A stretch of 63,690 bases of DNA. Origin: Vermamoeba vermiformis (taxonomy: Eukaryota). The notes beneath the pieces were generated by a model that saw nothing but the letters and a program-made list of their open reading frames with translations, was not told the DNA's origin and ran no database searches. The DNA lies in NCBI GenBank assembly GCA_045837725.1, contig JBEWZL010000145.1, positions 496,001 to 559,690 on the forward strand, written 5' to 3'. Every line of letters begins with the position of its first letter. Position 1 is the stretch's first letter. The translations under genes and the position numbers were made by a program. Positions 26,885 through 63,690 of this stretch are shown one piece after another.

Positions 26885-26912
26885 CAGTGACGACACTAGC
26901 ACAAGCACAACA

Positions 26913-37022: not shown

Positions 37023-37061
37023 ATTCGGAATAAATTTCTGTTTTTATTGTTGCCGATATTT

Positions 37062-40000
37062 ATGGAAGATAAAGCACCATATTCGTTGCCTCTTCAATAC
37101 CGTATTGCTCTTATCGGGCCAAACGGTAAGCTCGTGATAATCAACCCTATTTGTTAACGCGCTTAGGTGTGGGCAAAAGTAGCATCTGCTCTCAATTCGT
37201 GCACAACACCTTCGATGAAAATTATGAAACTACAGATACGTTAGATGAATACACTATTTGGGTAAATATAACTATTAAAGATTTTTTGGAATTTTGAAAC
37301 GAAATCTGGACGACGGTGGCCACTCTAATTAATTCACCAATTCAAAGGCCAATAAATTGTATAATTATGATCAAATTTCTAACGTTAATTTTTTAGTTCC
37401 GCGTTAAAAATCAGAATTACCTGTTAGGTAAGTCGCGTGTCTGTCAAATAAATAATTATTTACTAATTTATAAATGTAGAGATCGAAGACCTAGCTGGAT
37501 CGAACGAGTTTCGTGTAAGTTCTGTGTTAGGACAACTGTTGAGATTTTTAATTTCAAATAATATCGTTTTAGCATCGCCCGGCTGCCGACGCCTTTATTC
37601 TCGTTTATTCTATCGATAATTCGAACAGTTTTGATATAATCAGAAGACAAACTGCCAAGATAACCAAAGTGGCGAGGAATGCGGTAATCATTATTTTTGT
37701 GACTCGCTTGTCACTTTCCGCTAACGTCGTTTACCTTAGAAATTGGTCATTTTAGTTGGAAATAAGGCTGATACTAATAATAGACAAGTGAAATTTGAAG
37801 TAGCATCACAATTTGCTCGAAATAATGGGCTTTCGTTGATAGAAGTCTCTGCGACTAGTACGTTGTTCGAACGCACCCTTTTCGCAATTATTAACGTAAT
37901 TGTTCTTAGGTCGCGAATCAGTACGCAATCTTTTCGAATTCATTTTGCATAAGCTTCAAAGTAAGAATTTTTTGTCCGCTAGGATTGGGATCTAACCGGG
38001 TATTTAGTGCACCTCATTAAAACGACAATAATTTCCCCTATTCTGGACGGTCAATTGGAAGGCAAGAGCGAAAAGAGCCAATTAATTGCCAAACAATTAA
38101 AGCAAGATCAGTTGCGAAGAGCAATGAGCGATCTGTCGTGGTCTTTGGATCGCTCAGATTTTAGTGACATTGCCTTTATATTCACGAAAGAAAACAAAAA
38201 GTAATTCTTCACACGTAGTAATATCTATTACTGACACTATTGCAGGTTATTCGCCCATCGCTGCATTTTGTATGCACGATCTGACTCGTTCAGAGAACTC
38301 TTAGCAACAGAATGGAGTCAGCCGGAAATAATCATCGACGATGTTAAGTGTGAAATATTCCAAGCCATTATGAAGTTTGTGTACAGGTAAATGTATTTTC
38401 TAATCGAGGTTTACAATTACTGACCAGATCCTGATCTGCAGCGCTCAAGCGGACGCTGGTGATTTCAACGTGTCAGTATCTACGGCAAAAGAGATTATAG
38501 AAGTCGCCGAGAAGTTTAAGATCTACGATTTGAGTCATTTAGCCCGCCGCTATGTCATTACCAAAGCTGCAGTTGAGCGTACGTCGCCGGATCTATTTAA
38601 GTTTTTCCTAACACCAACGTGTTTAATTGTTTATATTAGGCATTACGTCTCTTCTCGAGAAACTATTTGAAGGACTTCGCAAGATTTCAGACTTTTTGGA
38701 TAAGGCCACAAATGACTACGTGTCGGTCTTAGCTTTCCTTCAAGAAAATATTCTGGAGGCACTCGACACGGCAGTTACGATCTGTTTCTCGTTTTTTAAG
38801 CAGTACAAGTTCTTCCCTGCTTTCCTCAAGACGGAGTTACTAGAGCACATATTCCAACATTTCCGAGGCTGGGCCACGTAAGTCTGGAAAGAATATTACA
38901 GCACTCATAGCTAATATCACGGTATTAGCACATTATCATCTGTTTTGACCAAGTTGTGGCCTTATTTTGAGAAGTTAACGAAGCCCGAGAGACTGGAACT
39001 CTGTGATCTCATTCGCGAGAGACTTTTGAAGATAACGCACGCGTTCCCTGATCTGCGCTCAAGGTAAATCCGTTGTTAATGACGCAAGCAAAGCTCACGT
39101 GCTGTGCAGATTGAAGGACAAGATGGAGCAAGTGTTCGAGTCCCGCCGTTTGCCAATGAACAAAAAGATTAAATCAGAACTGACTGAGTTCGTTGAGCTG
39201 TTGGGCGTTGTGCACGGCAAGCTAACAGACTACGACGGGTCACAAATGAAGCACAAAGTCAAGCACTTTTTGCATTCGTGGGACAAGACTGGCCGTAGCA
39301 TCACAAAGCTGCTCAACAAATATGACACAACAGAGCCATCGGAGATCGAGGGCGTGAAGAAGAGAATATTAGAAATGCTAGCACTAATGACGTCGAACGA
39401 AGTTCTCGGAATCGCACGCAACGTTGTGATGGAGTACCACGATGAGATTAAGAACGTTATGGACGTGTTTTTGAAACAAACACAGCTCCGTGCATCCCTG
39501 CAAGAGGTTCTCAATTTCTTCGTTGGAAAGTCTGGTGATGATACCAACGTGGAGAATATTGAAACATTGCTCAACGAGATGACATTTGACAACTTCAAGC
39601 CTCAGCGCATGAACGGTAATTTGATGGACGTGTTCGATCAAGACAAGTTCAGTGACTTGCAACTTCAATGGCAAGAGACCGCGGATGCTCAAATGATCAA
39701 CGCTCACAAAGTAATTCTTTCGAACTTTTCAGCAATCTTCAGAAGGTACGTCGAAAGCAGTTAGCCTACTTTCGAAGCAGAGTTTTAATTTTTTCACGCA
39801 GCATGTTTGTTGGCGGTTTCAAAGAAAGCAAAGAAAAAGTACTGCCAATATCTGACGTAGATTATCTTGCCATGCGTAGTTTAGTGCAATTCCTCTACAA
39901 CGGCGGTGATATCACTCCGCTGTTGTATCAAAAACACAACGCGAATGACACTACAAACCTCATACTTCAAGTGCTCATTGCAGCCAATCAGTATCAAATC

Positions 40001-42145
40001 GAACCGTTGAAAATGCAGTGCGAAGAGTACATCAAGTTGCAACTGTCGAAGATGGAAGTCGACGACATTTTGTCCCTGTATTCGATCGCTGACACGTACC
40101 AAGCCGAGATATTGAAGAAGGCGTGTCTCTCTTACACCGACAGACTTTTGTTCACAACGACGCCCTCGGCAACTTTCTTGAGCTTGCCTGCTGACGTGCA
40201 AAAGGCAGTTCTGGCCAGCAAGGCCCAATTTGAACGCGAGTTAGTGCATGCCAAAGTGTTCGTGGTCGGTGAGCGCGGTGTTGGCAAGACATCACTCATC
40301 AACAATTTCTTGGCCAATTTTCCCGCGGAAGAGTCATCACGTACGTTTGCACCATTATTTGTAACATATTTACTAACGCGCATTGTAGCGCCTAATCGCC
40401 GGTTTGTGGAGGCTCACGAGGGGTCTGCAGCCTACCTCGAAGTAGAGGAGATTTCATGCGAAACAGTTACTTCACAGTGGCTAGAAAACAACGTTTACGA
40501 CGCAAAAGGCGCGGTGGGTTTCCTGTTTGTGTTTGATTTGACCAGCAGAAAGTCATTGAAGAACGTGGTTGAACTCAAAAAGCGCGTGTTTGCACATTAC
40601 GAGCGACATCATATTATCGACACACCTGGTGGCAGTGTCGAAACACACAGTGTGCCGCTGTTTGGAGACGCCATTGGACTGCTCGTCGGCACCAAATGCG
40701 ACGTGGAAGATAAGGACGAGAAGTGGTTCGACTTTTCTCCTCCCTATTCGGATCCGCTTGGTTTAGGACCACCAACAAAGCTTGTTATTGAGCATGATGA
40801 CAATGAGAAGGAGTCAGAGTTGCGTCGATTTGGAATGCCCGAGCTGGTACACATTCAACATCAGTTGGATATTGGCTTCATCGAAGTTTCCACGGTCGTA
40901 GGCACCAATGTTCCATCGTGTTTCAAACGCGTAAGTTACTCGAACAAGTCATATTAAGCGCGCTTAACACTTGCATGTAGATGGCGCTCGCGTTTAAACA
41001 CATGACCAAGTCGTTCAATCCGACGCAAGATACCTTCGACTCGTTCTTGAACACGAAAGACAGTCAGACTATTTTGATATTGGGCAGTGAATCGATAGGC
41101 AAGTCGACTATTATAAAACAAGCGATGGTCGTTGCAGCTGGCAGCAAGAAGCCGAATTACAACAGATTTGAAGTGGTGCAGTCCATGAAGCGACAAGTAT
41201 ACGAGTACATTGAAGAGCTCGTGCACACTATTCGAACGAAGACTGAGTTACCCTCCCCGCCTGTGCACGACGTACGTACTCAATAGTATTCTATTCGAAG
41301 TTAGTCTAACGGTTGCTAGTTAATTGATTCCAACCCGACGTATTGGGGCAATGAAATTGTGGTTCTTTGGAACGACGCAACGGTGCAACACGTGCACGAG
41401 AATAGAAATCTGTATGGCATTTACCACTGCCCCTCAGCGTAAGAACTTCATTCGAAAATAGTCTACAACATTGTATTAACCTGCTTTTCAGTGCCTTGCA
41501 AAAGATCGATTTGATTCACAAATGGGACTATGTACCTACAGTGGACGACTTTATCTCCGCACACGTGTATAATTCTAAGAAGTCGTTTGAATCTCAAGTG
41601 CTCTATTTGAACAAGATATTCCGATTCGTCGATCTTCCTGGAAATTCGCTCGACCCAGTTCTCTTTGGAGACGCACGAAACTACTTCAATCAACTCGGCA
41701 TTGTAGTTTTTATGGTGTCACTTGCAGATTATGTGGAGCGCTGCGATGGTTATCCTTCGAAATTACACCGATCGCTTGCAATGTTAATCGAGCTGGCCAT
41801 GCAGGTACCACAAACAACGAGAAAGCTGTTCATCTATTTCAACAAGGTAGGCTAAAGAGACGATCCTCACATTTTAACATCGATATTTTGAAACAGCGTG
41901 ATGAGTTCGAACGATTGCTGCCAATAGTGAAGTTGAGCACCCTCCCTCAGTTCGATGGAATGGACGAGCGCTCACCTCAGGAACAACTTGAGTTCATTGT
42001 GGACCTCTTTTATACCGCCGCCAAGCAGCACGCAAAGTGTGACGTTTCTTACTTGTACGGATCTCTCCTCAGAACGGTCGATGCCACTCGTCTGTTAATT
42101 ACACTGACAACGTTCTTCGATGAGCCCGAGTCAGGCCATGCTTAG
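37062..42145 (+). CDS. Ras-like - BTB - helical - BTB - Ras-like - Galpha-like fusion protein
   Basis: IALIGPNG/VGKSS, LVGNKAD, EVSA; FSDIAF..AHRCIL; FSDLQL..AHKVIL..FRSMF..GFKES; VVGERGVGKTSL, LVGTKCD, EVST; LILGSESIGKSTIIKQ, YVPTVDD, FMVSLADY, FNKRD. The junctions checked splice in frame. Confidence 0.78.
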
Positions 42146-42173
42146 ATGTAATAAACTGGTCGTCCATTTGTCT

Positions 42174-44715
42174 TTATTCTAAAACTAACAAGATACACGA
42201 AGCAATAGTTATTGCGACAAACCAAAATGCAGCAGGTGAAGCAGTGCTGGTAACAGAGCCAGGGTTTGTAGAGCCAGCGGGTGTTTCAGGATTAGAAATG
42301 GCAAGTTGATTGCCGTCCCAAGTTCCTATTGTTTCGCCGATATTGAACGACCACGTGTTTCCATTGTGATTAAGCTGCGGTTCATTTCCCGTGCAGTCAG
42401 GATCCAACAACACAACAAATGTGACCGAAGTGAGATTCGTGTTGAGTTTGAACTGTCCGTGTGCTTGATTAGGCAAGTTCACTGGAACAGTGAACTGATC
42501 TGTTTGAGTGAAGGTGTAATCCGATGACGTGTACAGCATCTTGATGCACAACGATGCATTGCCGTCACTTGACTTGACAGTCGATGGCGAGACAACAGTG
42601 AAGTTGATGAATGCGTGCAGATTCCATTCGAAGCTTCGAGAAGAGTTGGCGTCGAATTGGTCGAAGATCACAAACTGATTGCTAGCCCGGAAGTAAACAA
42701 TGGAGCGAATGGCGCGTGTTAACTGAAGAGCTGGGTTTGTTACGCCATTGTTGTACGCTACCAAAGCATCTCCGGTGACGAAGTCAAACTCGTTTGAGTG
42801 GCCGAATTGAGTGATGTTGCCTGTTGCCGACAGCTGACCGATCATTTGCCCTACACCTCCGTCCATTGTCACACCACCACTCTTAGCTCGCGTCGTCCTC
42901 GTCCAGCCATTGTGATGTGCAGATCCATAGTAATCGTAGTAGCCACTGCTGATGAGCAACGCTTTGCCTTTGTGTGCAAATGTGAAGCACAACTGATCCG
43001 CATAGTTGTGATTGTATGAGCCGAATCTGCTTGAGCGGAAGAACAGCGACGTGCGTTGATTGTCGGAAAGAGAGCTGTGGAATGACGCCCAGCCAATCGG
43101 TGCCAAGTGAATAGCATTGGGATAGTTGCCTGGCAGCGGTTGAGGCGAGTTGAACTCGCGACTCCAAATAACATCGTTGTAGCGCGAGTCGACAACACCT
43201 TTGTAAGTGAGCGCGTTGCAGTACCAGTTATAAAGATCTTGATATTCCATGGTCGGAGATTCATCAAGAACTGGACTAACAACGTTGAGGCAGACCATAG
43301 GTTGATATGGTCGCATATCTGCCTGCCCACTGTCACCAAAGCCAAGACCGCCTGATGCCGCGCCTGGCGGTGAGAAGTAGATGAATTGCAAGGGCCACTC
43401 GCGCACCCACTGCTTCTGATACAGACTCACGCCTGTACTCCACTTCAAGAAGTTGAAGCGAGACGGTTCACTTGTAACGTCAAAGTAGTTGTAGCCCATG
43501 CCATTGCCGAAGCCTCCTTCGTGCTCACCCCAGGTGCTGTACATGTTTAAGAACATAGGAATGCTTGCTGCCCATGCGTCCGCTTCAGGAATCAGTCCAA
43601 GCACTGCCGCACTAGCACTGGCAATGAAGCCAAGAGTGTTGGCACCATGAGAGTCGTACGGTGCCGTCATTAATTGAGTGAGGAAACCTCCGTTCTGGTA
43701 CATTTGTTCGGTTCTGTTCTGGATGTTTGCCAAGATTCTATTGCGATCGGTTACGTTGAATTCGTTGTAGATCAAATCAAGGACTTGAGCCAGCGACAAT
43801 AAGATGGCTCTGTTTGCTTGATCTTGTGAGGCATAGCTTGTTGCTCCTGCTGGGTCCGCGTCCAAAAGTGCATATGTTCTTCGCTTGAGCTCATTGACGT
43901 AGATTGTGTTTGAAGAGTTGTACCAAAGAGCGTAGATGCAGTTCGAGATGTAAAGGACTTGCGGGCTCGTGAAGTCATTCATAACGCTCGATAGGTATGC
44001 GGCCCATTCAGGAGAGCCAAAAGGAAAGTCACTGGCAGTCTTGTTCGGTGCAACAGGAAGTGTAGCTCCGAGCTTTCTGTCCAGGTACGGAATTACCTGG
44101 GTGTTCACTACCTTGACGAATGATTGACCAGAGGATGAAGCCAAGAAAGCTGTCTTCGCATCACCCTTCATCAACAATCGTGGACGAGCAGAGTTCTTCG
44201 TCGTCGTGATAACGTCAGTTGGCACGACAAATGTTGTGGCATCAGATGTGACGAAGAACGAGCGCAGATCACTGTCAGTCGACGTGCCCTTGACAGAGTC
44301 CACCAAAGTCACTCTCCAAAAGTAGTGCGTGTCCACGGGTAAGGCAAGCGGCACGTTGTAAAAGCAGTTCGTTGTGGTGAAACTCCAGTCAGGTTGACGA
44401 TCGGCTGCTGAGTTGGCCCAGATCGACAATTTGAACGATTTGCCACTGCCAAGGAATCCTTGAGCGGTCCACCAAAATGAGGGCGGATTAGATTTAACGA
44501 TGGCACCATCTGGCGGAACGATCCGAACGTAAACCAAGTCATGATTCGTTAACAAATCTAACAATTGACATTAGCCCGGGTAAATAATTATCAATGAATA
44601 GAGGTGCAATCTTTTGAAAAGATTCGTTAATTATTTGTATAAATTAAATACCTCCGTGAACATAATTCGATGCGATGGCCAGAATAATCGCAATAAAACA
44701 CAACGGCAGTCTCAT
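42174..44715 (-). CDS. Secreted, GPI-type DUF4962 + heparinase II/III-like polysaccharide lyase (PL15 oligo-alginate lyase-like)
   Basis: Signal exon MRLPLCFIAIILAIASNYVHG, one intron, then NPPSFWW, PRLL, PYDSHG, FGDS, IGWASFHS, FRSSRFGSYNHNYADQ..F, SGYYDYYGSAHH..W, EWNLHA; S/T linker and hydrophobic C-terminal tail. Confidence 0.85.
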
Positions 44716-46308
44716 TGCGTACAGTTGTCAGCTTCTCCTCTCTATATCCGAGAAAAATTAGTCAAAATTACCCGGTTTATACTCTAGTAAAGGTATAACT
44801 TACGGTTTATTGTTAAGGTGGCAGTTTGAGTGATTCTTCACCTGTTGTATCACCTTAAAAAAGTACTTTGGACTGCACATTCGTCTCATTCGAGATTTTA
44901 TAGTATGACGCGAAATTTCTCTAGCTGTAACTTCGAAGGTAATCCTGATTTGACGCTGTGTGAATAAGTTTCTGGATTTGAATCACTTCATAACCCTTGT
45001 AAGTCGTTGCGGTTTACTGTTAGGATTCCGTTTATCTATAATTACAAGAGCGCAAGTTAAAAGGATCACTAAGAATTATTTTATTCCTAAGATCACAATC
45101 CGAATCTACTCTGGCGTCGGTTTTTTTTAAACCAAATCCGGTAAAAATGATTATATTATAATTATATACCACTGGAAAGACCGAATACAATTTAGTAAAA
45201 TTATTTTTACGCTACAGAGAATTTTAACTTACTATTGCTAGAGAAATCCTGCGCGCTCAAATAGTATCGTTCTCGTCAACCATTTCGAATACATATCTAC
45301 CATAAAGACACTTGCGGCCACTTGCGGCCACTTGTTAAATATTTCGAAAGAAATAATAATCTTTTTGATCAACCGATCGTCACGAACACCACAACCACAA
45401 ACGCATGCCGTGCGCCTATTTAATTTCGTTAAAATAATAACACGCAAATACTGTAGTTCTATGCTATGCGACGGTTGGAAATTACGCGCCGAAACGCATT
45501 CCAGATGCATTAAATCATAGTACGTCGAACCAATGCGCTTAAGTATGTACGTAATATTGACAAAATATGTACATACTTTTATAATAGTTATTGATGAACA
45601 AACGTGCTAACCAAGTACTAAATAGGGCACGCCCAACATAACACGTACCCAATTATTGTAGGATACGTATCGTTAACGCTGAAATGGTGAAGGACCGACG
45701 TGGCCACTAATTGCAGGTAATCCTCTGCCAAAGTTATTTATTCAGCGGCTGAATCTATTTTAAAGAATACTAAAGCCGGTTTTTTTTTCAAACAGCACGC
45801 GTGCCGTCATTAATAGTTGACGAAATGATGACACACCCTTCGGCTCCGTGCTGTCCCGGGACTCCAAATGCGGAATTTATTGGAGATATTCTGTCGCGTG
45901 ACTGAGAATGCTTGCTTTTTTGACTCGTAAGCTAGCAAATACCTCAGTATTCGAGTAAGTACCTTATTATGGACCTTTGCATGTAATGACTGTATTATTT
46001 GCGTAAAGCAGCGTAAACTTGTTGAATGGGCACTCTCTGTCGCGACCGGTCAACGAGAAATTTCACAAAAGCATGCCATTGTTGGACGTCGCGTGCTATT
46101 CTTTAACTAATAAGGTTAATTCACACGTGTTTAACCTTATTCACACGTGTTTTCAATTCCTAATGTGACAATACTCGCACGAGTCCTTGCAAAAGTCAAT
46201 TCCAATTATGGACCCGGCTCGGACATAAAAAGTAAGAAAGCCTCCGTCATTAGTATCTTTCTCTTCCATATTCAACGCAACAAGTCAACTCGATCTGCCA
46301 TTGCGTAC

Positions 46309-48411
46309 ATGATGAATCGAAGATTTTTCGTTGCTTTCTTACTTGCCATTATTGCCGCATCTGCTATCGCCAGAGATATCGGTCGTGTGAAAGTCATTCA
46401 CGCTTACCCTGCAGGACAAGTTACGGTCGATATCTACATTCTTCAGAACGGTTTTGTCGCCAAGTCATTAATGAGCGTGCCTTACAAGGTAAGTAAATTT
46501 GTCCGATCTGATCTTCAAAAAGGAGCATTTTCTAATATTTTCTAGGCTGCCAGCGATTGGTTCTACTTACCTTACGGAGACTACACTGTGGAAATTAGAG
46601 CTGCTGGCCAGACTGACGCAATCTTAACCACCCCCGTTACAGTGGAGAGTTATTCTACTGTTATTTTCGCTCAGGACAACAATGGCAATGGCCAATTGAC
46701 TCTTTCGGCCTTTAGCGACAACATTGACTCCATTGCCGATGGAAAATCTCACGTCACCATTGCTCATCGCGCCGTTGATGTTTCTAACGTCGACGTTGGT
46801 GCTGGTGACTCGACGAACAACCTTGCTGTAGACTTGGCTTATGGCAGTCAAGCTGGCCCTGTTGAAGTCGATGCTGGTACCGTCAGTGCTGGCGTTCGAT
46901 TAACTGGTGATACTGGTGCCCCCGTTATCACTCTGTCTGCTACTTTGGAAGCTCGCAAACACTATCTCGTCGTTGCCGTTGGTGATTCTAGTGGTAATCC
47001 CGCACTGACTCTTCTCGCCTTCGAATTGGCCGACTACTCCATTAGCGCTCGTTTAGCTTTTGTTCACGGTGTTCCTGCAGCGGATCTCCCCGTCAGTGTT
47101 AACGCTAATGATCAACTTGCTCTCTTCCGAAACGTCAAGTAAGTAATCGATTATTTCCGAGCAATATTGTGTCAATACTTATAATTAAATTGCAGCTACA
47201 AGAACATCACCGACTACAAGAACATTCCCGTCGGTACCCACACCATCAACGTCGTGGCTGGAGGCAATGTTGCTCTCTCCGTTACTGCTTTCTTCAATGG
47301 ATTTACTGAATCGACGTTGTACGCTACATTTAATGGTGAAGGCCCAGCTGGCATTCTCCTTCTTGACAACAATGAAGCTCCTGCTAGCGGCAAAACTCAC
47401 TTGAGAGTCTTGCACGGTGCTGGCGCTGCCCCCTCAGTGGACGTTCTCTCTGGCACCACTGCCGTCATTTCCAACATCACCTACGGCTTCGCTTCTGCAT
47501 ATTTGGCTCTTGATGCTGGTTCTTATTCACTTTCCGTTAATGCTGCCGGCTCGTCCACATCCGTATTCCAAGTAAGCTTGACCCTCGCTGCCGGACCCAT
47601 CATCACCGTTCTCGCGACCGGAGATCCCGCTGCAAGTGGTGCCACAGCCTTCACTCTTGTTGTCGTCACCGATGCTACCTATGGCTCTGGCGGCAACTTG
47701 CGTGCTGTCCATGCTGTCGCTGGTGGTCCTAACGTCAACATCAAGGCCAACGGCAATCAAATCTTGTCCAACGTACCTTATCAGGCCGTATCAGGCTATT
47801 TGCCTATTGATGCTGGCTTGTACGCAGTTAGCGTTCACGCTGCTTCGGATGATGCCGAAATTTTCCGCAACCCTATCCGAGTTGATGCTGCTGGATATTT
47901 TACTGCTATCGCTGGTGGCGTGCAGGATCTTGCTCTCTTCCAATTACGAGACGACAACACTCGCCCCGCTGCTACCACGGCTCATCTCCGCGTTGTACAC
48001 GCCTCTGCTGGTTCGCCTGAAGTCAACATCGAATTCGGTGGAAGTATTGTTGGTTCTCTCGTCTACACTGAAGCCTTTGGTTACGTTCCTGTTCCCGCTG
48101 GTTCTTACGTCGCTCGCGTTCTCGCCAAGTCTAACAACGCTCAAGTTTTCAATGGTTCGTTGTCCTTGGAAGCCGACACCGTTGTCTCCGTGTTTGCCGT
48201 TGGTATTGTTGGTGACAGCACTAATGGCTTCACTGTTGTTCCTGCCATCGACTTCGATTACCGAACTCCTGCTGCCGAGCCGACAGCTGCTGCTCCTTCG
48301 TCGACCCCTACCGGAACTCCTACCAGAACTCCCACTCCCACTCGCACTTCGTCAGCAAGTTACGTTGGTGTCTCTAGTATTGCCATGTTGGCCTTGGCTG
48401 CTTTGTTTTAA
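46309..48411 (+). CDS. Secreted, GPI-type surface protein made of tandem DUF4397 (AlgF-like) repeats
   Basis: Signal peptide; repeats VKVIHAYPAGQVTVDI, LRVLHGAGAAPSVDV, LRAVHAVAGGPNVNI, LRVVHASAGSPEVNI, each followed by Y...S.Y..(L/V).AG.Y; PT-rich linker and hydrophobic tail; two introns. Confidence 0.85.
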
Positions 48412-48785
48412 ACGAAAATAAACATTAGTTTCGGTTAGCCTTTGACAACACGAGTCCTGCACTCCGAAATTAGCAATAACGCACTGTTAAAGAGAAAAAT
48501 TCGATTAAATGCGCTCTGGTAGCGCAGGATTGAATATTGATCGGACAACAGGACCACAACAATATTTAAATCGAATGCTAACATTGATCAAATTCAACGC
48601 AAATACTCTCAAGTAATTAATCAATACACCGTCATTTTGGTTTTACCATTAATGAAAAAATTGAATTAAATTTTTGAATCAGATCGAGCGTTTTAAAAAA
48701 AATCGGCCGAATTAGGATTTATATTATAACAATAATCCTTCTAGGTAATTTGACTATTGGATAATACGCTGCACGAGTCAAAGCG

Positions 48786-49910
48786 ATGTCCTTCGCGAAA
48801 AAATATCTGGAATATTGCCAAGCGACACAACGACGCTGGATGCTTTACGGTATGGAATTTAACAATTCAATATTCAACATTAATACTGTAATCCATTTAT
48901 TATTAAATTGTGACTGAATATTTCGGCTAGATTACATCACGTTGCCCTTGCTCGAGGACGTCACAACGCTAATTGCCCAAAGCTCGGTCGTCAACGATAT
49001 TCTCTTTTGTCAGCGTAAGTCAGACAAATCCGCTTAACCTGTTTTGACTAACTCAATTTGTGGACAGCTTCGCCAATGCCGACTGTACACAGCAATTCTT
49101 TAGCCGTTGCTTTGGCGACGAACAGTTCTCTCACCGCGCTTGAAATCCGAGGTAATTACGCGCTATCCGTTTGCAAACAATAACTGTCATTTAGATGTCC
49201 TACATAATGTTGATTGCAATATGCAGCCGGTATTTGACGTGTTGGCAACGAAAAGTCAACTCCGTGCCTTACATCGTAAGTTAATATACATTTAAATCCT
49301 TGTTCATCATTTCTTTTATTAGTTTCGAGCATCGATAACTCGCTCACGGGAGAATTATTTCCGTTGGTAGTGCGAATATGTCGCAATTGTAGCACGCTAA
49401 CCGAATTAACATTGGAAGATAACTTCACCGAGCATCAGTATCTTCAGTTATTTGAGGCTTTGAATGGACAGGATAGACTCACAAGATTGAGAATCGGTAT
49501 GCTCACATTTTCGGCCCTATTAAACACAGCGACTAACGGCAGTTAAGGCGATATTGATTCGTGGTCGCAAAACACTCTTTCAGTCTTTGCGCGGTTTCTC
49601 AACGAGAATAAGAACATCACAAGCTACCATGCACACGTTGGTAAGCATATTATATATTAACAAAAAAATTCCTGTATTTCGCTTGCTGGCCACTGTCGTG
49701 CAACATACTGTGGTGTTCGTGAAGCGAGTTGTTGCTCGTCTTGGCTGGTTTGCTCAGAGGTTCATCGCTGGATGTACTAAATAATATCTTTCATCACTAA
49801 TAAATATGTTGTAGCACGTGACACCGTTGAATTCCTTGCAACACTGACAGATGTGAGCGTTATCGGTATGTTCGAGTTTCGTTAAAAGTAAATTTTAACG
49901 TTTGATGTAG
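48786..49910 (+). CDS. RI-like leucine-rich-repeat exons that splice in frame into the downstream F-box ORF
   Basis: LAVALATNSSLTALEI, LATKSQLRALHL, CRNCSTLTELTL, LNGQDRLTRLRI, FLNENKNITS; all introns are phase 1. Confidence 0.7.
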
Positions 49911-49996
49911 GATATACCTCCAATCAGAATGTTGACAGTAGCATTGTTGCTGTAGCTCATTTTGATAGCCGTACACCATACACCCATGAGCCAAAC

Positions 49997-51439
49997 ATGA
50001 CAGAGCTATTTTTGGACATACTACCGCTAGAGATAAGCAAAAAGATTCTCTATTCGCTCAATATTGGACCTTTGATGTCACTATTCCGAACAAGCAAAAG
50101 GTCTTTAGAGTTCAGTCAATCCTATGACTTTTGGCACACCTATTACTTAAGTCACTTTGATTGTATTCCTGAAGATCTTCTGGAGTTCATTTGCATCAAG
50201 CATGGAGATTTGCTGCTTAACAAGAATTCCATTAATGAGTTATTCCCAACAAATATCTGGCTATTAACATTGCAAGCAATGACAGTAGTGTATCAAGTTA
50301 AACCTGCAGATTTACCACAAGACAGAAACCCACTCATTCAGCTTGTCTCCAAGTCATTTCCACAGCTCAAGAGTCAAACCAGTTCTTATGGATCCAGCTT
50401 TGATGGCTTTACATGGCTTACCTCTGTGTGTGGTGCATATGAAATCTACTGGACAGTGCACAAGCTTGGACTACAATATCAACCTGAATTTAATCAGTAC
50501 AGTGCTATTTTGCTTCGAAAGCACGAGTATGTGGATGGCTTCCCTCACCGTGTTGAGCAGTTTGAGCGCTTAGAATATATCTTAGACTGGACTGTAGCAA
50601 ATGACCCCAAGCAATTTGTCAATCAAGTCAAACATCTTATTGAAATGTTTCTATTACTTCGTTACAACTCTGAATTTGAAATCTGTAGAGAAATTATTCC
50701 CAAGTCAAAACTCAAGGAACATTTCATTACAATAGATGAAGCTACTCGTAATATCAATGTAAAGATTGAAGAATATGCAGCTATGGTGGAAACCAATCAA
50801 TTTGATTTGCAGCTCATAGAAAGAAGTATTATTAGATTGAAACAATTGCCCATTCATCAATTGGATTATGCAATGTGTAAACAAATACTGCCCAAAAGAA
50901 CAGAAGTTGATGCATTCAAAAATTACATGCAGCATCATAGGGATTGGGAATTCTACAGAAAGGATTGGAAAGATTTTGTCCATGTTCAACTTTTCTCTGG
51001 CAAAACAAAACACAGGCAAAGCAAGAATATAGCCAAGGTTTTGGTTTTGAGGTGGATACGAGTCATGCTCAACTACTTGATGTTACCCTTGCTTCAACTC
51101 TTTTGGCCTCGTGATATGACAGATCCTGACTTCAATGCCTACAGCTACACTCTGAATTATAATTTCACTCAAGATTATCAACAATTCTATTCATCTCATG
51201 TTTTGGCCAACAAAGTCACTATTTACCATAGTTTCCCTTGGTATTGGCCAGTGCTTGTAACAGGAATGAGTAGGCTAATTCTAGGCCATGTTCTGGAGAT
51301 AATCACTGCTACCTTGAATAACAAACCTCTAGGACCAAGCATTGAGCAATTAATGAAAGCTTTGCAGACTACTGGTTTCTATCCAAAGAGTGCATTAACC
51401 ATGATCCAAGCTTTTTTCAAAAATGAATTTCCTAGCTAG
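49997..51439 (+). CDS. F-box protein (long uninterrupted ORF, CpG-poor)
   Basis: LDILPLEISKKILYSL..LMSLFRTSK...FW F-box consensus at the start of the ORF. Confidence 0.7.
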   Translation: MTELFLDILPLEISKKILYSLNIGPLMSLFRTSKRSLEFSQSYDFWHTYYLSHFDCIPEDLLEFICIKHGDLLLNKNSINELFPTNIWLLTLQAMTVVYQVKPADLPQDRNPLIQLVSKSFPQLKSQTSSYGSSFDGFTWLTSVCGAYEIYWTVHKLGLQYQPEFNQYSAILLRKHEYVDGFPHRVEQFERLEYILDWTVANDPKQFVNQVKHLIEMFLLLRYNSEFEICREIIPKSKLKEHFITIDEATRNINVKIEEYAAMVETNQFDLQLIERSIIRLKQLPIHQLDYAMCKQILPKRTEVDAFKNYMQHHRDWEFYRKDWKDFVHVQLFSGKTKHRQSKNIAKVLVLRWIRVMLNYLMLPLLQLFWPRDMTDPDFNAYSYTLNYNFTQDYQQFYSSHVLANKVTIYHSFPWYWPVLVTGMSRLILGHVLEIITATLNNKPLGPSIEQLMKALQTTGFYPKSALTMIQAFFKNEFPS

Positions 51440-51699
51440 TAATAAATGCATTTTTCTTGTAAGAAGTGCGAAGTCTGATCAAGCACTTGGTTAGCAAATG
51501 TGTTGGCACTGGTCTTGTGTAAAAGAGCCAAAAATTTGTCAGTCAAAATTTTGGCCAAGTTTTGGAAAATAAATTTTGTCAAAACCATTTGGTTTGTGTC
51601 TGAATCCTGACTGCTTTCAGCTTTGTCTATCCAACATGAATACCTCATTTGCAAATGAGGTAAGAGCAGTTCTTGTTCACCATGGTTTACTGAGTGCAA

Positions 51700-52680
51700 A
51701 TATCAGTGGATCAGCAAAGCAGGGGTAAATTTATACCAACATCCTAGTTCTTTGTGCAAAGGAATGACAGCAGCTGTATTTAGTTGCTCTTAGGAGTTGG
51801 GTTGAATTTATTTGCAGCTTTGGGGGTTGCCATGGGAACATTCTTGAATTAACACAAGTAAATCCCATCAAAATTATTTGAATAACCCCAGCTAATATTA
51901 GGGAGTTATGTGAAGGGTGTTGCAACAAAATTTGAGATGTTTGCATCCTGGCCCAGTTCTAGTACTTCAAAGGGTCAAGTACGTGAAGAACAACAATGTT
52001 ATTATTAGTTGTATGCCTGAGCAAAGTTCTTGTAGTGGCATTATCGATCCGCAAGTGTCAAGTGTCAACTTAACACATGTCATCAGTGGAACATCTACTT
52101 CACAAAGCTCCTGCAATGCCTGTGGCAATTGCTCATCTTCCAAAGTTGTTGGTACTGCACACACTATTAATAGTAGTAGCATTGTTCAAGCCCAGACATC
52201 AAATGTCAACATGTCAAGTGTCAAACACCAACATTACTTCTCAGCCTCTCCCTACTCCAGTTCATCCAGTTCAACCAGTAGCTCCAATTCAACCAATTGC
52301 TCAACAAATGGTGGTTAATCAGGCCCCTCAAGTCAATCAGGCTCAGCCACGAGCAGATCCAGTCCAACCTATTCAAGAACAAGGTCCAAGGTGAGCAACT
52401 ATACAGTGTATAGAATCAACATTGATTGACCCTATTAACAGAAATCAAGCCAGTTGTGATCGAGCTCCCTGTGGCTCAGTACACTGTTCCAAAAACAGAA
52501 TCAGTAAGTACATGATGTGGCTGCAGGTTGGATTTTGGAAATTGAAAGTGTGCAACTTTGCACACCTTAAAAGTGTCAAAGACATGAGTGACATAAAGAA
52601 AAAAATAGAAAATGTCATTGTTGATGTAGCTCCACCGGTGCTTGACAGCACTGAAACCCTAAGTGTTCAAACTTGAGGTG
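51700..52680 (+). pseudogene. Decayed Cys-rich, Pro/Gln-rich coding remnant
   Basis: Protein-like frame interrupted by TGA/TAG stops (II*IT, KI*DV) inside the CpG-depleted island. Confidence 0.4.
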
Positions 52681-53091
52681 CACTATATACCTTATAGGAG
52701 TAGGGGTGGGTAGGTGGGGGGTTGCGTATTCAATTTTCATTCACATCAGCATCAAACAGGATGCATGATTAAATATGATGATATTAGCGGTGTTAGCCCC
52801 CGCATAGAAAGGAAGATGAAAGTGATGTTGATTAAATTAAGTGATGTTTGTTTAGTGAGATTTCATTCTGTATTCTCATGAAGAATGATGATTGGGGTGC
52901 GTAGAATAGAGTGATATTGATCTGAATAGAGGGTGTATTCATATATGTAAAAGGGCCTGGCCAGGTAGGAGAAAGTTGACCAGCTAAAATGGTCGTTTAT
53001 TGACATATGCTATCAGTAGCATATGCTGTTATGTTTCTTTGCACTATAACATAAGCTTGTATCCAATGGCATATGTTATAAAATGCATATG

Positions 53092-53890
53092 TTATCGCGA
53101 ATTGGCGTTGAATTGGCGTAAGACTGTGTAAATCAGCTGCTTGATGTACTTCTTGCTGAACAGGTCATTAAAATAGTGGTGCTGTATCCAATAAAGTAAA
53201 CTACGCTGAACAATGCTTCCTTTTTGATTGGCCACCTCCAACAGGGCCACCTTGCACCTCTCTACATGCTCCTCTTTTACAGCTGTAGGTTTCAGCTTTT
53301 TGTGAGTGTACCCATCCTCTGTAAGCTCTTCATACGTGGCAGGTTTCAATTTTTCAACAAATCTTGTTATAAACTTTGCATTTGGAAGATTGAGCATTGC
53401 TGCAACTGACTGTGATAGCTGCTGTTTGTACCGCAAGTGAGCAATATCCTTGCTGCAAACGGTCAGTAAACAACATATGTGTTATTTTACAAGCATATGC
53501 TTACTTTCGATTATAGAGAAATGCCATATGCTGCAAAAAGATTGAAAGCAATTCCATGGAAACAGAGTTGCTCAACTGTGAAAATTTCTTTCCAATGTTC
53601 TTGTGCCAAATTTCATTTTGCGAAGTCCCTTGCTTAGCAGTAGTGTGCTTAGAAATGTTGAAAAGACCAGACAATACCGGTTCTTCAATTAAGTTTTCAA
53701 TAGCAGCCTCAACCTTGCTTGTAACAAGTGCATCATATGCTTTTCCATCAGGTGACAACGACAGCTTTCTGCATATGATATTATTAGCATAGGCAATTAA
53801 AAGCATATGCTGGTACTTACGTGGACTTCTGGATTATATATAGCCTTAGGAGTAGGCTGGTTTAGGTTTATAGGCTTTTGGCATTAAATG
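53092..53890 (-). pseudogene. Spliced hypothetical gene, possibly a pseudogene
   Basis: ORFs 53501-53806 and 53092-53436 are linked by a GTAAG...CAG intron; the putative first exon has an in-frame TAA. Confidence 0.45.
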
Positions 53891-54948
53891 ATACATTTGC
53901 CGTGGAAAGTGTATACAAAATAAATAAGTATATACAAAATTTAAACTTTTATTGCTAATGGTTCCATATCTGCTTTTTGGAAAGCATTAGAAGGAAATAC
54001 CTACTAATATACTTGTATTGTGTTGTGCTTCAGCCTACAAGTTGTTGGCAGGTCTTGGTAAGGATCACAGGAATGTGTATACATAAACCATAATGTGTAT
54101 ATAAAAGGGCATCTGGGTCATTAGGACTTGGGAAGGATATTTGCTTCAATTTTTAAGCATATATTAGTCCAACATTATCAATGAAACACTGAGGAGAGTT
54201 TACAGTACAACAGGGACGTTTATTTTTCCTAATATGTCGTTTATGTAAATTGTGTATACAAAATGTTTTTGTGTATACATTACACTGATTGTGTATACAA
54301 CGATGTATCGTACATCTGTGCTGGCCCTTGGCAGGAATAACTGATGAATGCATTAATTCCGCGCACTGCTAACACTGTTAGTCATACGCATTACAATCCA
54401 GACCCTTTTACTTACCTTGTTGTAACAGAGGGTTTGCTCATCACCCTCTAGCAAACCCACGACGCACACTGCTTTCAAACCCTCGCAAACCTCGTAGCTC
54501 GCGTGTTACGACCTAAACTAACCCTTCAGAGGTTTGGAAAAGGTAAGTTCTTACGTACCGAAAAATTCATCGCAGGACTTTCGGGAGTGACGCAACAGCT
54601 GAGCGTCAACAGGCAAGGTTTGATTTTGAAACATGCTACACTTGAAATAACGCTGCGTAGTGCGTCACTTGAGTGCTATAAATACCTGGATCCAAAATAT
54701 TACAGAAAATTATTCGTAGACGTTGTTACGTGTTAAAAGTGCAACATATTAAAAATGCAAAACAAATTGCACTTTTAATACCCCGTGCGAACAACAGTTA
54801 TTCAGCAAGATTATGCAGGCAATAGAGTGTTTTATGAGCAAAACTAACGTAGATTTAACATTAAGTAATCCTGGTCACGTGACAAGTCCAAAAAAGGCAT
54901 GGTGAAAAATTAGGTTTTGTAGTTTTATTTCATTCGTAAATCAAGCAA

Positions 54949-55396
54949 ATGGTGAAAACAAAGGGCAGCAAGGGAGGGAAGCAAGTTGTGCTTACCCAAG
55001 AGCAATATGATGATATTTTTCGGTATCTACGAGACAAAAGCCAGTTGCCAAAGGATTTTGATAGCTGGGCTCCATACAAAAGAACTCGCTGGCACCAAAC
55101 TGTGGCCAAGTTCTCGTTAGTTGGGCAAGGAGACCAGCCATGGCCGAATGGTCAAATATTACAACTGCAAACCTCCAAAGGGCCAAAGATTTACGTGCCA
55201 CCATCTGAAGTGCAAACAGTACTGAACAGATTTCATCCTTTGACGGCACCCAAGGATATTGTTGGCGATCACAAAGGAGTCAACCGGACCTATAAGACAG
55301 TAAGATTAGATTTATGCATAATTATATCAACAGTGCTATTCGTAGATTGCTTGTGGCCACGCTGGTATAAAGATGGAAGATGTAAAGAATCATTAA
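54949..55396 (+). mobile_element. Truncated N-terminus of a retroviral-type integrase (H2C2 Zn-binding region), Ginger/TDD-like DNA transposase with an intron
   Basis: YDDIFRYL...KIYVPPSEVQTVLNRFH......GDHKGVNRTYKT/IACGHAGIKMEDVKNH*; stops before the expected CxxC and DDE core. Confidence 0.65.
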
Positions 55397-55530
55397 TACA
55401 GATGAGTAGGGTTTGGCCATTTAAGGGTTTGAGCGTTTCAGCATGCAAAAATAGCATGCAAAATCCCATGCAAATTACGATACAAATTTTCCATATTAAA
55501 ACCGAAATCAGACTTGGCAATGTTGTACCA

Positions 55531-55750
55531 AAGATTACGCTCTTGATTTTGGAGCGTAGTCCTGAAGACTACGCTCTGTGCCCGTAGTTTCAAGGACTAC
55601 GCTCGATACCATCACAAAACCGCGAACCCAAATCACACGATGACGGCAAGCTAATTTTGAGCGTAGTCCTGAAGATTACGCTCTCAACACTTGAGCGTAG
55701 TCCTGGAGATTACACTATCAACTCTGGAGCGTCGCGCTGAAGACTACGCT
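55531..55750. repeat. Array of short palindromes GAGCGTAGT-cctgaag-ACTACGCTC, about 5 imperfect copies
   Basis: Perfect 9-bp stem at 55552-55576; variants at about 55583, 55659, 55693 and 55727. Confidence 0.88.
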
Positions 55751-56002
55751 TGTGACGGGTAAGGTTTCTCACCTTTGGGTCTTTTGAGCTTGCTTTGGAA
55801 AGTAGTGATTTTATTTATGTTTATGATAATTAAGTTAAAATAATAAGAAACGATTATTATTCTGCGTCGACACAGATGCGGATGTAGATGTACGCGTTCA
55901 CCAGTAAATAAAGAAATTTAGCATCTTACCTGGCTCGTATCTATTAAGTGTCATAATTATCATACTATTAAATTGTAAATTGAATCGTACGCGTTTGAGA
56001 AA

Positions 56003-56059
56003 GAGATCGGGAAAGATCACAAGATCCGGAAAGATCGGACAAGATCGGACAAGATCGGG
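56003..56059. repeat. Short AAGATC(GG) repeat cluster, about 6 copies, about 10-bp period
   Basis: gagatcgggaaagatcacaagatccggaaagatcggacaagatcggacaagatcggg. Confidence 0.75.
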
Positions 56060-56492
56060 TTAAAACTAAAAATTCGAAGAACAACTCGTGCGTATTCACT
56101 CCTGTTGGTCAACTCTGACTGGATTCATTTTTACGCGCAATAATAGATCACGCTCCATTTTTGGTTGAAGCACGTGGTTGTCACGTGCTCAAATTCCGAA
56201 TCTACGCTTCAATCACTTTCCCAATTATTTTCAAAAGAAACACAAAAGCTCTTTGCAATACACTGAGCTGTTAAGTACGCAGTCCGGCAATACCTCACTG
56301 CGTAATCATCGAGCATCAAAGCAGATTCGCTCGGAATTGAGGGCTTTCCTAAAAGCTAGTCCTCTGTATTAAATTAATATAACAATATATTAATTACGTA
56401 GTCTGTAATATCGTCGCACGGTTCCCAATAGGCTCCGTCTCGATTTTATTTAAAATTAATTAAATTCAATCTGGCTCGATCAAAGGTTTCAA

Positions 56493-58948
56493 ATGGTAAA
56501 AAATTACAGAAATAATTATTTAATGACGATTTATTAATAGCATTTCATTTTAGAACCCGAAAATTACGGATCTTCCTCTACCGATCAAGATTCGGAACTA
56601 TTTTCAGTTCTTAAGCTTGGCCAGAAACCGACTACAAGTGGGCGGCATCGAAGCTGCTATACAAAATGCAGAGCGCAAAATATCCGCTTACTCGACATTC
56701 ACTAAGCGCGAGGATTTTGTCCTTCTGTTCTGCATCTTCGACTTCCACCAGATGCTGCAGGACCCTGCAGAGGGAACCCGTTATTACCCGCAGTGGTATA
56801 AAACATACCGCGACTTAATCTCAGACGCACTGGGCGTACCGATTGGAGACTCACTTGAGTGGAGAGATGTTGGTACCTTTTTGAAAGGCTTCTACGCACG
56901 GTTCGAAGCAGCTAAGCGCATCTGCGAGGAAGCCGTACAGGCGAAGTTTTTGGCCAACCCGAACGAGGAATACACCCAACTTATTCACATAGAGTATCAC
57001 AAGCTGTGGGTAGCGCTTCGATACCACTACTCATATTGGAAAACTGACGATAGTCTTCGCGCGCTATTCACCTCTAAAGATTTAAAGTACCCGTGCGACT
57101 GTGACTACAACCGACCACTATTCACAAAGTTCGCGTCATTTGTTAGCGATACCTTTAAGCCGCAACAGCAAGGTAGGTGCACGCATTAATATTTATTTGT
57201 CTCTAATTATTACTAGGTCGGGCAGCTCGAAACCCAACCACGTCAAACTCCGATGTCCCGACCTAAGGACAGCCCGTTAGACTTCATTGAGGGATGCCGC
57301 GGCTTAGGTCATCATTGGTTTCACCTGCCAACTTTCGCTGCTGAGGACCGGCCTCTTTTCTCAAATCAAGCAAAACGAAAGGCCCCTGCCCCAAATGAAA
57401 ATGCTCCTTCGCCGAAAAAAGCGAAACCCTCCATTGAGGCCGTTGTGCAAGAACCAGTCCTTCACGAAGAGCCACAACCCGTGCTAGTTAGCAGTGAAGA
57501 CGAAGACGAAGATCTACTGCCCGCTTCCCCAAAACCTCAGACGCCGCCAATAGTAGTAAGTCTTAAATATCTCCGTTTATATTCTCTAACACAAGCAATA
57601 GGATTCTCCAGTTGCTCGGTCTCCTTCTGAAAGCTCGGATTCCGGCTCCAATCGCGAAGAAACCGTTCCCCCGTTACGAGTCAGCTTTGAAGTGTGGCAA
57701 AACGACTTGAATGCCATCAAGCGCAAAGAAATGTCGTTTGATTACGACGAAGTTACCCTGTGCAATTTTCGCTTTGAGGTTGAAGATCTTGCCCATTTAT
57801 CCGCGAAATGTTGGTGGCTTGGCTTTTCCAGCATGAACCTACTAGGTGAGCGACCCTCTCTCTCAAAAGAAGCCAAAAGCAAGTACGTAGCGATTATTAC
57901 TCGCGTTACAATTTTTTTCTGATTTTTTTAGGCTAGATCAGATTCGTGTTTTGGTTGCGGACTCAACCCCGCCCTCTGTGGTCAACTTTGTATGGCGAAA
58001 TTGCCCAAATATTGGCTCTATCACATATATCAGTAGCAATTGCTCGACGGCGTTGTTGCTAGAGAAGCAAAAGTTGACAAATCTCAGATTCGTACATCTG
58101 GGTTCGAAAACTTTCAACAGCCGGCTACTTGACGCATTTGGCTCAACAAACCTCCTTACCGTTGTTCGTACCATTGCAAAAGAGGCAAGACAGCTTGTTG
58201 GCTTGCGTTTACCGCTGCCAACCCAGTCGGATTTCACTTTGGATGTCGGTTTCCTGGCCAAATGCCAACTTCCATCCACACTGCGTTTGCTAGAGTTAGT
58301 GTGTCTCAAGGGCAATGTGCGGGTTGACCTGCGTGCATTGGGCTTGTTATCTTTTGTGAATCTTTCGCTGATCAACTTTTTCGTTGCGCCAATCCCGGAG
58401 AGTGATGACTCTTTCGACGAAGATTTTGAAGAAGATTATATGCCTAAAGGACCAACTTTACACTTGGGTGGAACTGACCTCGATATCACAACAAAAATTT
58501 TCGAGGATGTAGTTCAGAAACGACCGTAAGTCCTCACAATTACACAATTATGTTTTCTAATTCTTGTAAATTAGGTTTGCTTTTGACAACGAATCACTTG
58601 TACCGCGGCTTATATATTCGCCGAGGTACTTTTCCGAGCTTTGGGACAGATTCGTGCACCTGACACTGCAGCCAGGCTCCAAACCGCAAACAGAGAGTGA
58701 GATAAAGAATGGCATACCTGGAAGACGAATCAGCTTTTACCCTGCCATACCTCCTCCCCCGCAGCATAGGTCAACAGAGGTCGAGTATTGGGTGAAAATC
58801 CTGCTCGATCCAGATGGATCCAACCAAGAAACATTCCAAGTGTTACCACCGAAGACTTCCACTCATAAGTTCTCCCACTTTGTAGCCAACATTTGATGCG
58901 GAGCTGCCACGTCGGCGTCACGTGCTTGTATCGCTTTCCGACCAATAA
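56493..58948 (+). CDS. Orphan multi-exon protein with basic/acidic linker and an LRR-like leucine-rich C-terminal half
   Basis: ATG micro-exon, intron 56496-56553 in frame with ORF 56617; further ORFs 57253, 57692, 57951 and 58654 are joined by GT-AG introns. Confidence 0.6.
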
Positions 58949-59052
58949 ACGCGTGTCGACTTGATATTTAACGCTCCGGTGGTTCATTTGGTGCACGCTA
59001 TTCGAGCACACGCACAGTTTACAACCAATATCTACTACTCACTACTACTCCA

Positions 59053-61149: not shown

Positions 61150-61318
61150 TTTGGTTACGACATTACGAACACTTACATGAACGAGCCACAAGTTTGTATG
61201 TAATACACTTTATTGCTCACAATATAAATCTAATTCACGTACTACAGCAACCATTTCACCGTTCAAGGCTCACTTTGACCGAGAGTTCAATCTATTTGAT
61301 TTTGACAAGGAGAACGGA

Positions 61319-63075: not shown

Positions 63076-63261
63076 GTAAGAGTCAAATTTCGATTAGACT
63101 CAGCTAATAATTCATATATGTAAGTGGGCTTGCCCATATAGGGCTAGCCCTGTCACCCCCCTCAAAAAAATAAAGAATATTCTACCCCGATCATTTTTTA
63201 CTTAAGCAAAATTTTACTTTGGAAAATTATCCACAGGAAAAAAGAAGTCTCACCCTGAGTG

Positions 63262-63592
63262 ACTCTCAAAAAAACAAAGTCCTGCAGGTCGTCTCCACGC
63301 GGAGACGATCTCATAAAAAAACAAAGTCCTAGTAGGTCGTCTCCACGTGGAGACGATCCAAGAAAAAAACAAAGTCCTGCAGGTCGTCTCCACGCGGAGA
63401 CGATCTCATAAGAAACAAACTCCTGCAGGTCGTCTCCACGCGGAGACGATCTCATAAAAAAACAAAGTCCTAGTAGGTCGTCTCCACGCGGAGACGATCC
63501 AAGAAAAAAACAAAGTCCTGTAGGTCGTCTCCACGCGGAGACGATCTCAAAATAATACAATGTCTCGCATCTCGTCTCCGCGCAAAGACGAT
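63262..63592. repeat. Tandem array of 46-48-bp units, each with the palindrome TCGTCTCC-acgc-GGAGACGA
   Basis: Palindrome starts at 63289, 63337, 63384, 63430, 63478 and 63525, with a degenerate copy at 63572; A-tract linkers; 141-bp higher-order period. Confidence 0.95.
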
Positions 63593-63690
63593 TGAAAGCA
63601 GAAATCGTTGGGTTCTTCTGCACGCGAGAAAACACTCTGTTAAATTATTGAAAAAGCTTAATTGCAATTAAAAAACCTACTGAGACGGCA

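Follow-up and report, generated by a model that had tools for sequence, protein, structure and literature searches.

A window of 63,690 nucleotides from the amoeba Vermamoeba vermiformis (the whole stretch analysed, positions 496,001 to 559,690 of contig JBEWZL010000145.1, assembly GCA_045837725.1) contains two head-to-head genes whose ATGs are 1,593 bp apart: gene A, coding for a PL15-like lyase, and gene B, coding for a DUF4397 repeat protein. Judging from sequence, we consider it somewhat better than an even chance that gene A is a horizontally acquired surface lyase for a uronate exopolysaccharide (EPS) other than alginate, that it serves to loosen prey, and that it works independently of gene B. 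A divergent pair about 1.6 kb apart was the starting point of the original prediction, and both gene models were confirmed in place. The two-gene module built on that pair is the weakest part of the case.

Gene A lies on the minus strand (ATG at 44715, stop at 42174; 815 amino acids) and has one intron, which is predicted and without which the signal peptide would be lost (Table 1). Two Pfam families match it above cut-off, DUF4962 (E = 8e-20) and Hepar_II_III_C (E = 1.2e-14). Exon 2 also encodes a stalk rich in serine, threonine and proline (S/T/P; 57% of 23 amino acids), followed by a hydrophobic tail resembling a glycosylphosphatidylinositol (GPI) signal. Both protein termini are hydrophobic, and a GPI-type layout (signal peptide, small-residue omega site, spacer, terminal hydrophobic stretch) is visible by hydropathy and by eye. 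Residues 14–649 of exon 2 align with Atu3025, a PL15_1 enzyme (PDB 3A0O/3AFL), at E = 4.5e-33 and more weakly with the PL15_2 exo-heparinase BIexoHep (PDB 6LJA), at E = 4.6e-16. The structural model (predicted local distance difference test, pLDDT, 85) has the three-domain architecture of PL15, i.e. an N-terminal beta domain, a helical toroid and an antiparallel beta-sheet domain. In Foldseek comparisons its template modelling (TM) score is 0.77 to Atu3025 and 0.74 to BIexoHep, and at most 0.59 to other lyase families. By E-value, too, PL15 structures are by far the best matches (3e-113, versus 2e-16 for PL39). With both domains above cut-off and the catalytic residues intact, the expectation of a PL15-like lyase with surface-protein anatomy was borne out. 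A scan of NCBIfam found no model matching gene A, gene B or P0013, and an Atlas look-up added nothing beyond the Pfam families already matched.

Lyase chemistry would be expected of gene A because it is typical of the PL15 family. The protein keeps His325, Tyr377 and His538, the equivalents of the His, Tyr and His whose roles in PL15 lyases are named in PMC11921355 and PMC7904915 (papers are cited throughout by PMC number). These correspond to His311, Tyr365 and His531 in Atu3025 and to His337, Tyr390 and His555 in BIexoHep. Tyr555 of Atu3025 (Tyr470 in the PL15_3 enzyme VBAly15A) is likewise retained, as Tyr562, and gene A resembles both enzymes in its three-domain fold. In contrast, the charged residues of the alginate lyases are replaced: Arg199 by Ser211, Glu254 by Gln268 and Arg314 by Asn328 (Atu3025 numbering for the former of each pair), and there is no Arg anywhere in residues 190–235. 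All three are kept in three of three PL15_1/3-type references, and PMC11921355 ties these positions to alginate binding: the substrate-binding Arg (VBAly15A Arg114/Arg110; Atu3025 Arg199, the two numberings being related by an inferred offset of 85) is reported as fully conserved in PL15_1 and PL15_3, and the Glu254/Arg314 pair as neutralising the +1 carboxylate. Gln occupies the Glu254 position in 80 of 146 relatives (bacterial DUF4962 group), and the Trp467 region of Atu3025 falls within an alignment gap. Three residues past the catalytic His, gene A has an amide resembling Gln340 of the heparinase-subfamily enzyme BIexoHep. Gene A is only about 21–25% identical to Atu3025 and VBAly15A, being placed in a separate clade, and 19% identical to BIexoHep, the more distant in sequence and in the tree. 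While PL15_1/3 enzymes are leaderless and encoded in catabolic operons, gene A has a signal peptide and a GPI-like tail; PL15_2 exo-heparinases belong to Bacteroidetes utilisation loci. On these sequence features, gene A should act like a PL15 lyase, yet it falls outside the alginate subfamilies.

Phylogeny agrees with the residues in separating gene A from both characterised groups. A first protein search returned 11 relatives including one distant, of which four (49–91% identity) either are anchored in like manner or cluster with the amoeba copies and six (39–45%) come from Chytriomycetaceae fungi; a search of representative sequences extended this to 1,068 relatives, the next tier being at 28–36% identity. 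The nearest bacterial kin are secreted, mostly proteobacterial DUF4962 proteins; those of Betaproteobacteria (Nitrosospira, Thiobacillus, Dechloromonas, Janthinobacterium, Deefgea, Chitinivorax), 28–36% identical, share the catalytic residues. Trees were computed with FastTree on 63 rows and with IQ-TREE on 31 of those; in them PL15_1/3 is represented by three plasmid homologues, not by the characterised enzymes themselves, and PL15_2 by two sequences assigned by similarity. In the IQ-TREE analysis the amoeba and chytrid lyases form a clade (support 100/100) nested in a bacterial group (100/99) that excludes both sets of references. The PL15_2-like references are split from gene A by 100/100 branches, and a forced grouping of the eukaryotes with PL15_1/3 is rejected by the approximately unbiased test (p = 0.005). 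The sister proteins of the amoeba lyases, from Rhizoclosmatium globosum (ORY39730.1), Obelidium and Siphonaria, are annotated as hypothetical. Bacterial ancestry, which had been proposed for both genes, is upheld. For gene A the simplest reading of the tree would be one acquisition, followed by transfer between amoebae and chytrids in either direction. A hydrophobic N-terminus is present in 52 of 72 full-length bacterial-type relatives and a hydrophobic C-terminus in none, and the GPI-like tail is absent from all four chytrid proteins checked, which indicates that the anchor was added in the amoeba. PL15 has been recorded in eukaryotes before: PMC3652786 gives PL15 calls in 15 basidiomycetes, with no chytrids among them in the part available. 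The literature searched (most subscription papers lay outside it) held no description of the amoeba/chytrid lyase clade, nor is it mentioned in the main text or two supplements of PMC11291939. An anchored, expanded eukaryotic branch of the PL15-related clade, with kin in EPS loci and shared with chytrids, was not found described in that literature.

Bacterial context was taken from the best 80 of 482 genome loci, mostly of Betaproteobacteria; their 817 open reading frames (ORFs) were clustered, and 44 of the 45 commonest clusters were annotated. At least one recurrent EPS-biosynthesis family lies within 8 kb of the lyase gene in 46 of the 80 loci, and at least two in 38. The families concerned are GT4, WecB, WecG, UDP-sugar dehydrogenase, Wzx, Wzy, an acetyltransferase, exosortase B, EpsI and EpsD/F/G. 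Going by known pathways, WecB together with UDP-sugar dehydrogenase suggests amino-uronate sugars in the EPS. The bacterial DUF4962 proteins, often inside EPS biosynthesis clusters, have no C-terminal anchor, unlike gene A, and no measured activity of theirs turned up in the literature searched. Floc formation requires EPS clusters that include PEP-CTERM proteins, and flocs are believed to resist protozoan predation (PMC9850573). In the other 34 loci, no alginate catabolic family was found among the 96 scanned of 139 unlabelled ORFs near the lyase; two PL15_1 homologues examined (24–26% identity to gene A) sit in catabolic operons with ATP-binding cassette transporter and short-chain dehydrogenase/reductase genes. 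Alginate, the substrate originally assigned to gene A, is therefore unsupported, because the three charged residues are lost, the tree excludes gene A from PL15_1/3, and its bacterial kin lie outside alginate catabolic operons, in Wzy-type EPS loci. The DUF4397 profile had no match among the 817 ORFs, so A and B did not arrive together as one bacterial operon.

Independence from gene B is suggested by the copies of gene A. The genome has nine lyase loci, among them five copies 84–92% and three 45–54% identical to gene A, and six DUF4397 loci; the two adjoin in the window only, i.e. at one of nine lyase and one of six DUF4397 loci. All five recent copies share 42,140–45,086 of the window and nothing from 45,070–48,500. 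Of these, three have open frames and evolve under purifying selection (ratio of nonsynonymous to synonymous substitution rates 0.17–0.22). The other two, like two of the older copies, are interrupted in the assembly. In one copy the next gene lies about 530 bp upstream. Since open copies under selection carry only about 370 bp of upstream sequence and no gene B, gene A would appear to function with a short promoter of its own, and a block 260–370 bp upstream of it is conserved in the recent copies (Table 1). The idea of a co-regulated module is not supported by this pattern, given the single adjacency and five recent copies left without gene B. The intergenic gap had also been described as the longest in the host part of the window. 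This is plausible, the check being partial: three other long ORF-poor stretches (26.6–28.3, 33.2–34.7 and 37.0–38.4 kb) hold short-exon genes by eye only, and a Markov coding model was discarded as too insensitive, having labelled only about 20% of the window as coding. Rfam and tRNA scans found no match in the window. A pair of CACGTG sites upstream of gene B was considered as a regulatory marker and set aside: with 33 such sites in the window, it is not diagnostic.

Gene B, on the plus strand, runs from its ATG at 46309 to a stop at 48411 and encodes 662 amino acids, with two introns of 57 nt. The first was seen spliced in a contig of run X4; the second is supported by 8+8 reads from X21/X23 whose ends at 47196 are loose. 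DUF4397 (PF14344) scores 71 and 185.5 bits, above cut-off, with six matches in all; the stalk is 61% S/T/P over 36 amino acids, and both termini are hydrophobic. With its signal peptide and GPI-like tail, gene B does have the anatomy of a DUF4397 repeat surface protein. Repeats 5–6 are predicted with confidence (pLDDT 92) to fold as tandem transthyretin-like beta-sandwiches, and their top structural match is the PepT2 ectodomain (Z 17.5, root-mean-square deviation 2.7, 173 residues aligned). A match at Z 12.4 is to an entry titled 'membrane proteins', which we take to be the HGSNAT luminal domain; an HGSNAT-named entry scores Z 10.7, the C-terminal domain of AlgF (6D10) Z 10.1 (deviation 2.6, 85 residues aligned), and carbohydrate-binding modules Z ≤7.9 only. 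Gene B thus shares tandem beta-sandwiches with AlgF, the PepT1/PepT2 ectodomain and the HGSNAT luminal domain, but differs from these and from bacterial DUF4397 proteins in having six repeats on a GPI-like stalk. Its sequence identity to AlgF and PepT2 is 11–13%, the AlgF family PF11182 has no match in its exons (DUF4397 is the sole Pfam match), and a sequence search of the PDB gave no real match; PF11182 is present in two bacterial relatives. The relation of DUF4397 to AlgF, a protein that works with AlgI, AlgJ and AlgX in alginate acetylation, thus holds at the level of the modelled fold. Alginate binding by gene B, which had been proposed from the AlgF analogy, is unsupported, because AlgF itself is reported to show no binding of mannuronate oligomers (4- to 12-mers) and is described as mediating protein-protein contacts; the PepT ectodomain binds trypsin (PMC10641220). 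The nearest bacterial kin of gene B are four-repeat DUF4397 proteins joined on long branches (about 34% identity), and the closest named relative is a V. vermiformis protein 72% identical over exon 3, which points to a tubulinean amoeba of the Vermamoeba type as host. We read gene B as a surface protein of six beta-sandwich domains that was acquired separately and most likely serves as an adhesin or a protein-docking rod. No function of DUF4397 in protists was described in the literature searched, and two metagenome scans for gene B orthologues gave 293 and 227 pattern matches, none confirmed.

From the gene structure, fold, residues, phylogeny, bacterial neighbourhoods and copy pattern observed, we infer the activity, substrate, anchoring and grazing role of gene A, and the role of gene B, as follows. 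An ancestor would have taken from bacteria the gene for a secreted enzyme often found in Wzy-dependent, exosortase-linked EPS biosynthesis loci; in the amoeba the gene would then have gained an intron and a GPI-type tail and expanded into several copies. The protein may be displayed on the cell surface or the phagosome membrane, where His325 or Tyr377 would abstract the C5 proton of a uronate, with beta-elimination as the result. The polymer cleaved would most likely be a non-alginate bacterial heteropolymer of the floc or capsule type, and its cleavage would loosen flocs or capsules and ease engulfment of the prey. Gene B could be an independent adhesin or docking rod, not needed by gene A. 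Of the surface attack on uronate EPS originally envisaged, the role itself is thus plausible, while alginate, gene B as the binder and co-regulation are unsupported. A more specific version, in which a surface-anchored lyase captured from EPS producers breaks the anti-predator flocs of Betaproteobacteria and stands for a new non-alginate PL15 subfamily that also passed between amoebae and chytrids, we hold as a tentative possibility that falls short of an even chance. Its fullest form, in which gene B is, in addition, a co-regulated scaffold docking such enzymes at the feeding surface, is very doubtful.

Several observations weigh against an independent, prey-directed gene A. No labelled EPS family was found in 34 of the 80 bacterial loci, the count of 46 has no background control, and the labels GT2, GT4 and GalE are generic. 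Chytrid saprotrophs are not known to engulf bacteria, and they retain the enzyme without the tail, so other substrates are possible. The genome has no match to the 2-keto-3-deoxy-6-phosphogluconate aldolase family, which makes use of the product as food less certain, and the loss of M. bovis biofilm caused by V. vermiformis was no more than modest, at 24.9% (PMC7641382). Contigs of run X4 cover both coding regions and leave 44,415–46,018 empty; among the 16 of 60 pieces displayed, the one on gene B is identical, while those on gene A differ by 6–8%, 11 of 15 listed variants matching the C239 copy, and these pieces do not establish expression of the window's own copy. X21/X23 (68 and 86 reads, almost all less than 95% alike) were not used for expression levels. 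Finally, the A/B locus of the window is old, as neighbour remnants at C124 and a neighbour shared with C77 indicate, and divergent paralogues of A and B lie 45 kb apart on C232, an arrangement with a chance probability of 3–8% that fits old linkage.

The chytrid proteins lend some weight to another substrate for gene A, be it the sheaths of algae or cyanobacteria, detritus resembling glycosaminoglycans, or the glycocalyx or cyst wall of the amoeba itself, with the adjacency of gene B incidental. The lyase is shared with saprotrophic chytrids, its amide past the catalytic His is heparinase-like, and the genome has further secreted lyase-like genes. We nevertheless think such a substrate unlikely, since the closest bacterial kin are associated with loci for EPS biosynthesis, and PL15_2 lies further away.

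The age of the locus could also mean that A and B are an old linked pair, co-regulated against non-alginate EPS, in which gene B is a scaffold docking A or other hydrolases. The C232 pair is a weak hint of such linkage. Decayed fragments of the coding end of the window's tail-to-tail neighbour are found with both C124 copies, so the window locus is their parent, and the possibility that gene A is a recent arrival beside gene B was rejected on the same evidence. Moreover, the matches of repeats 5–6, the PepT2 ectodomain and AlgF, are both described as protein-binding. Still, we give this reading little credence: the 66 kb of C232 examined hold no paralogue of any other window gene, eight of nine lyase loci lack an adjoining DUF4397 gene, the C77 lyase paralogue has an aquaporin-like neighbour as in the window but no DUF4397 gene, and gene A, with an anchor of its own, needs no tether.

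Highly improbable is the module as first conceived, in which gene B binds alginate, gene A cuts it and one bidirectional promoter drives both. The head-to-head layout, the common surface anatomy, Atu3025 as the nearest solved structure and the AlgF match of gene B speak for it, and exact adjacency would be rare under uniform placement (about 0.1%, for a pair chosen after the fact). It does not accord with the missing Arg and Glu residues, the rejected PL15_1/3 grouping, AlgF's reported lack of mannuronate-oligomer binding (PMC10641220), lyase copies that stay open under purifying selection without gene B, or the copy with another gene about 530 bp upstream. That the genes are contaminating bacterial DNA or an artefact of assembly, which the mainly bacterial nature of both domains might suggest, has a practically negligible probability, being refuted by spliceosomal introns and by paralogues on many contigs. 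Spliced contigs, a gene B orthologue in V. vermiformis, eukaryotic neighbours (BTB-Ras, G-alpha-like, RhoGEF, VPS13) and a GC content at third codon positions (0.54 for A, 0.46 for B) like that of the neighbours (0.46–0.51) also speak against it.

If gene A is a surface lyase for non-alginate EPS, it would be a specific, expressible candidate for amoebal attack on flocs or biofilm, with a substrate class attached, and its activity would assign a first function to a large uncharacterised PL15-related clade. A bacterial gene common to an amoebozoan and chytrid fungi is also put on record. The predicted alginate lyase of Acanthamoeba castellanii presumably belongs to a different lyase family. It is likewise an amoebal lyase proposed to act against bacterial biofilm, and is described as uncharacterised (PMC7641382).

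Table 1. Features of genes A and B and of their surroundings (window coordinates)
Feature	Position	Strand	Remarks
Gene A exon 1, signal peptide (residues 1–21)	44652..44715	-	ATG context kept in six recent copies
Gene A intron, 94 nt, GT..AG	44558..44651	-	predicted only; without read confirmation
Gene A exon 2	42174..44557	-	N-terminal beta domain, DUF4962 helical toroid, Hepar_II_III_C beta domain
Catalytic-base equivalent His325 (= Atu3025 His311)	43647..43649	-	alignment to Atu3025
Catalytic-acid equivalent Tyr377 (= Atu3025 Tyr365)	43491..43493	-	alignment to Atu3025
His538 (= Atu3025 His531 / BIexoHep His555)	43008..43010	-	alignment
Upstream block conserved in five recent lyase copies	44977..45086	.	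probable promoter element of gene A alone
Duplicated unit, gene A and ~370 bp upstream, without gene B	42140..45086	.	in C239, C124 (twice), C116, C247
Unique remainder of gap, including gene B proximal promoter	45087..46308	.	two ATTCACACGTGTTT copies at 46119 and 46139
Gene B exon 1, signal peptide and beginning of DUF4397 repeat 1	46309..46488	+	
Gene B introns, 57 nt each	46489-46545; 47139-47195	+	
Gene B exon 2, DUF4397 repeats 1–3	46546..47138	+	
Gene B exon 3, DUF4397 repeats 3–6, S/T/P stalk, hydrophobic GPI-like tail	47196..48411	+	
Coding 3′ end of tail-to-tail G-alpha-like neighbour	41990..42145	+	decayed remnants flank C124 lyase copies

The paralogous loci have features of their own. 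At C124 (136.6–150.2 kb) two lyase copies stand head-to-head about 9 kb apart; both, as well as the C247 copy (3.9–6.5 kb), carry a displaced piece of window 41,432–41,503, suggesting duplication with local rearrangement. Aquaporin-like genes, recognised by eye from their Asn-Pro-Ala motifs, lie downstream of gene A (window 26860–28020) and of the C77 paralogue (L060:1200-2157), hinting at an old segmental duplication. A gene cluster between the C232 paralogues of A and B (383–393 kb) includes a nucleotide-sugar transporter, a nucleotidyltransferase and a kinase-like gene. The C162 paralogue of gene B (L049:4052-9906) is part of a cluster of three secreted genes, its companions being a Cys-rich mucin-like gene and a CBM6 protein, P0258, with no catalytic family assigned; a head-to-head arrangement with the CBM6 gene was considered and dropped, because the two are separated by a small co-directional gene. 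Three distant DUF4397 surface genes were also found (L153, L154, L155), those of C260 and C284 being near-identical including their neighbours. Elsewhere in the genome, a second lyase candidate (L156:3226-4957) is secreted and, besides an F5/8 type C domain, shows a weak match to Alginate_lyase (PF05426), and a C193 gene (L157:2951-5605) combines Hepar_II_III_C with a GPI-like tail and is unrelated to gene A. Searches of the genome for PL7 (PF08787) and PL14 (PF21294) had no match, and neither had their controls. Within the window, ORFs of 49800–63690 have no Pfam or PHROG match except one below threshold, and the multi-exon Ras-like/BTB/BTB/Ras and G-alpha-like frames of 37060–42145, which end 28 bp from the gene A stop, apparently form one or two unusual fusion genes.

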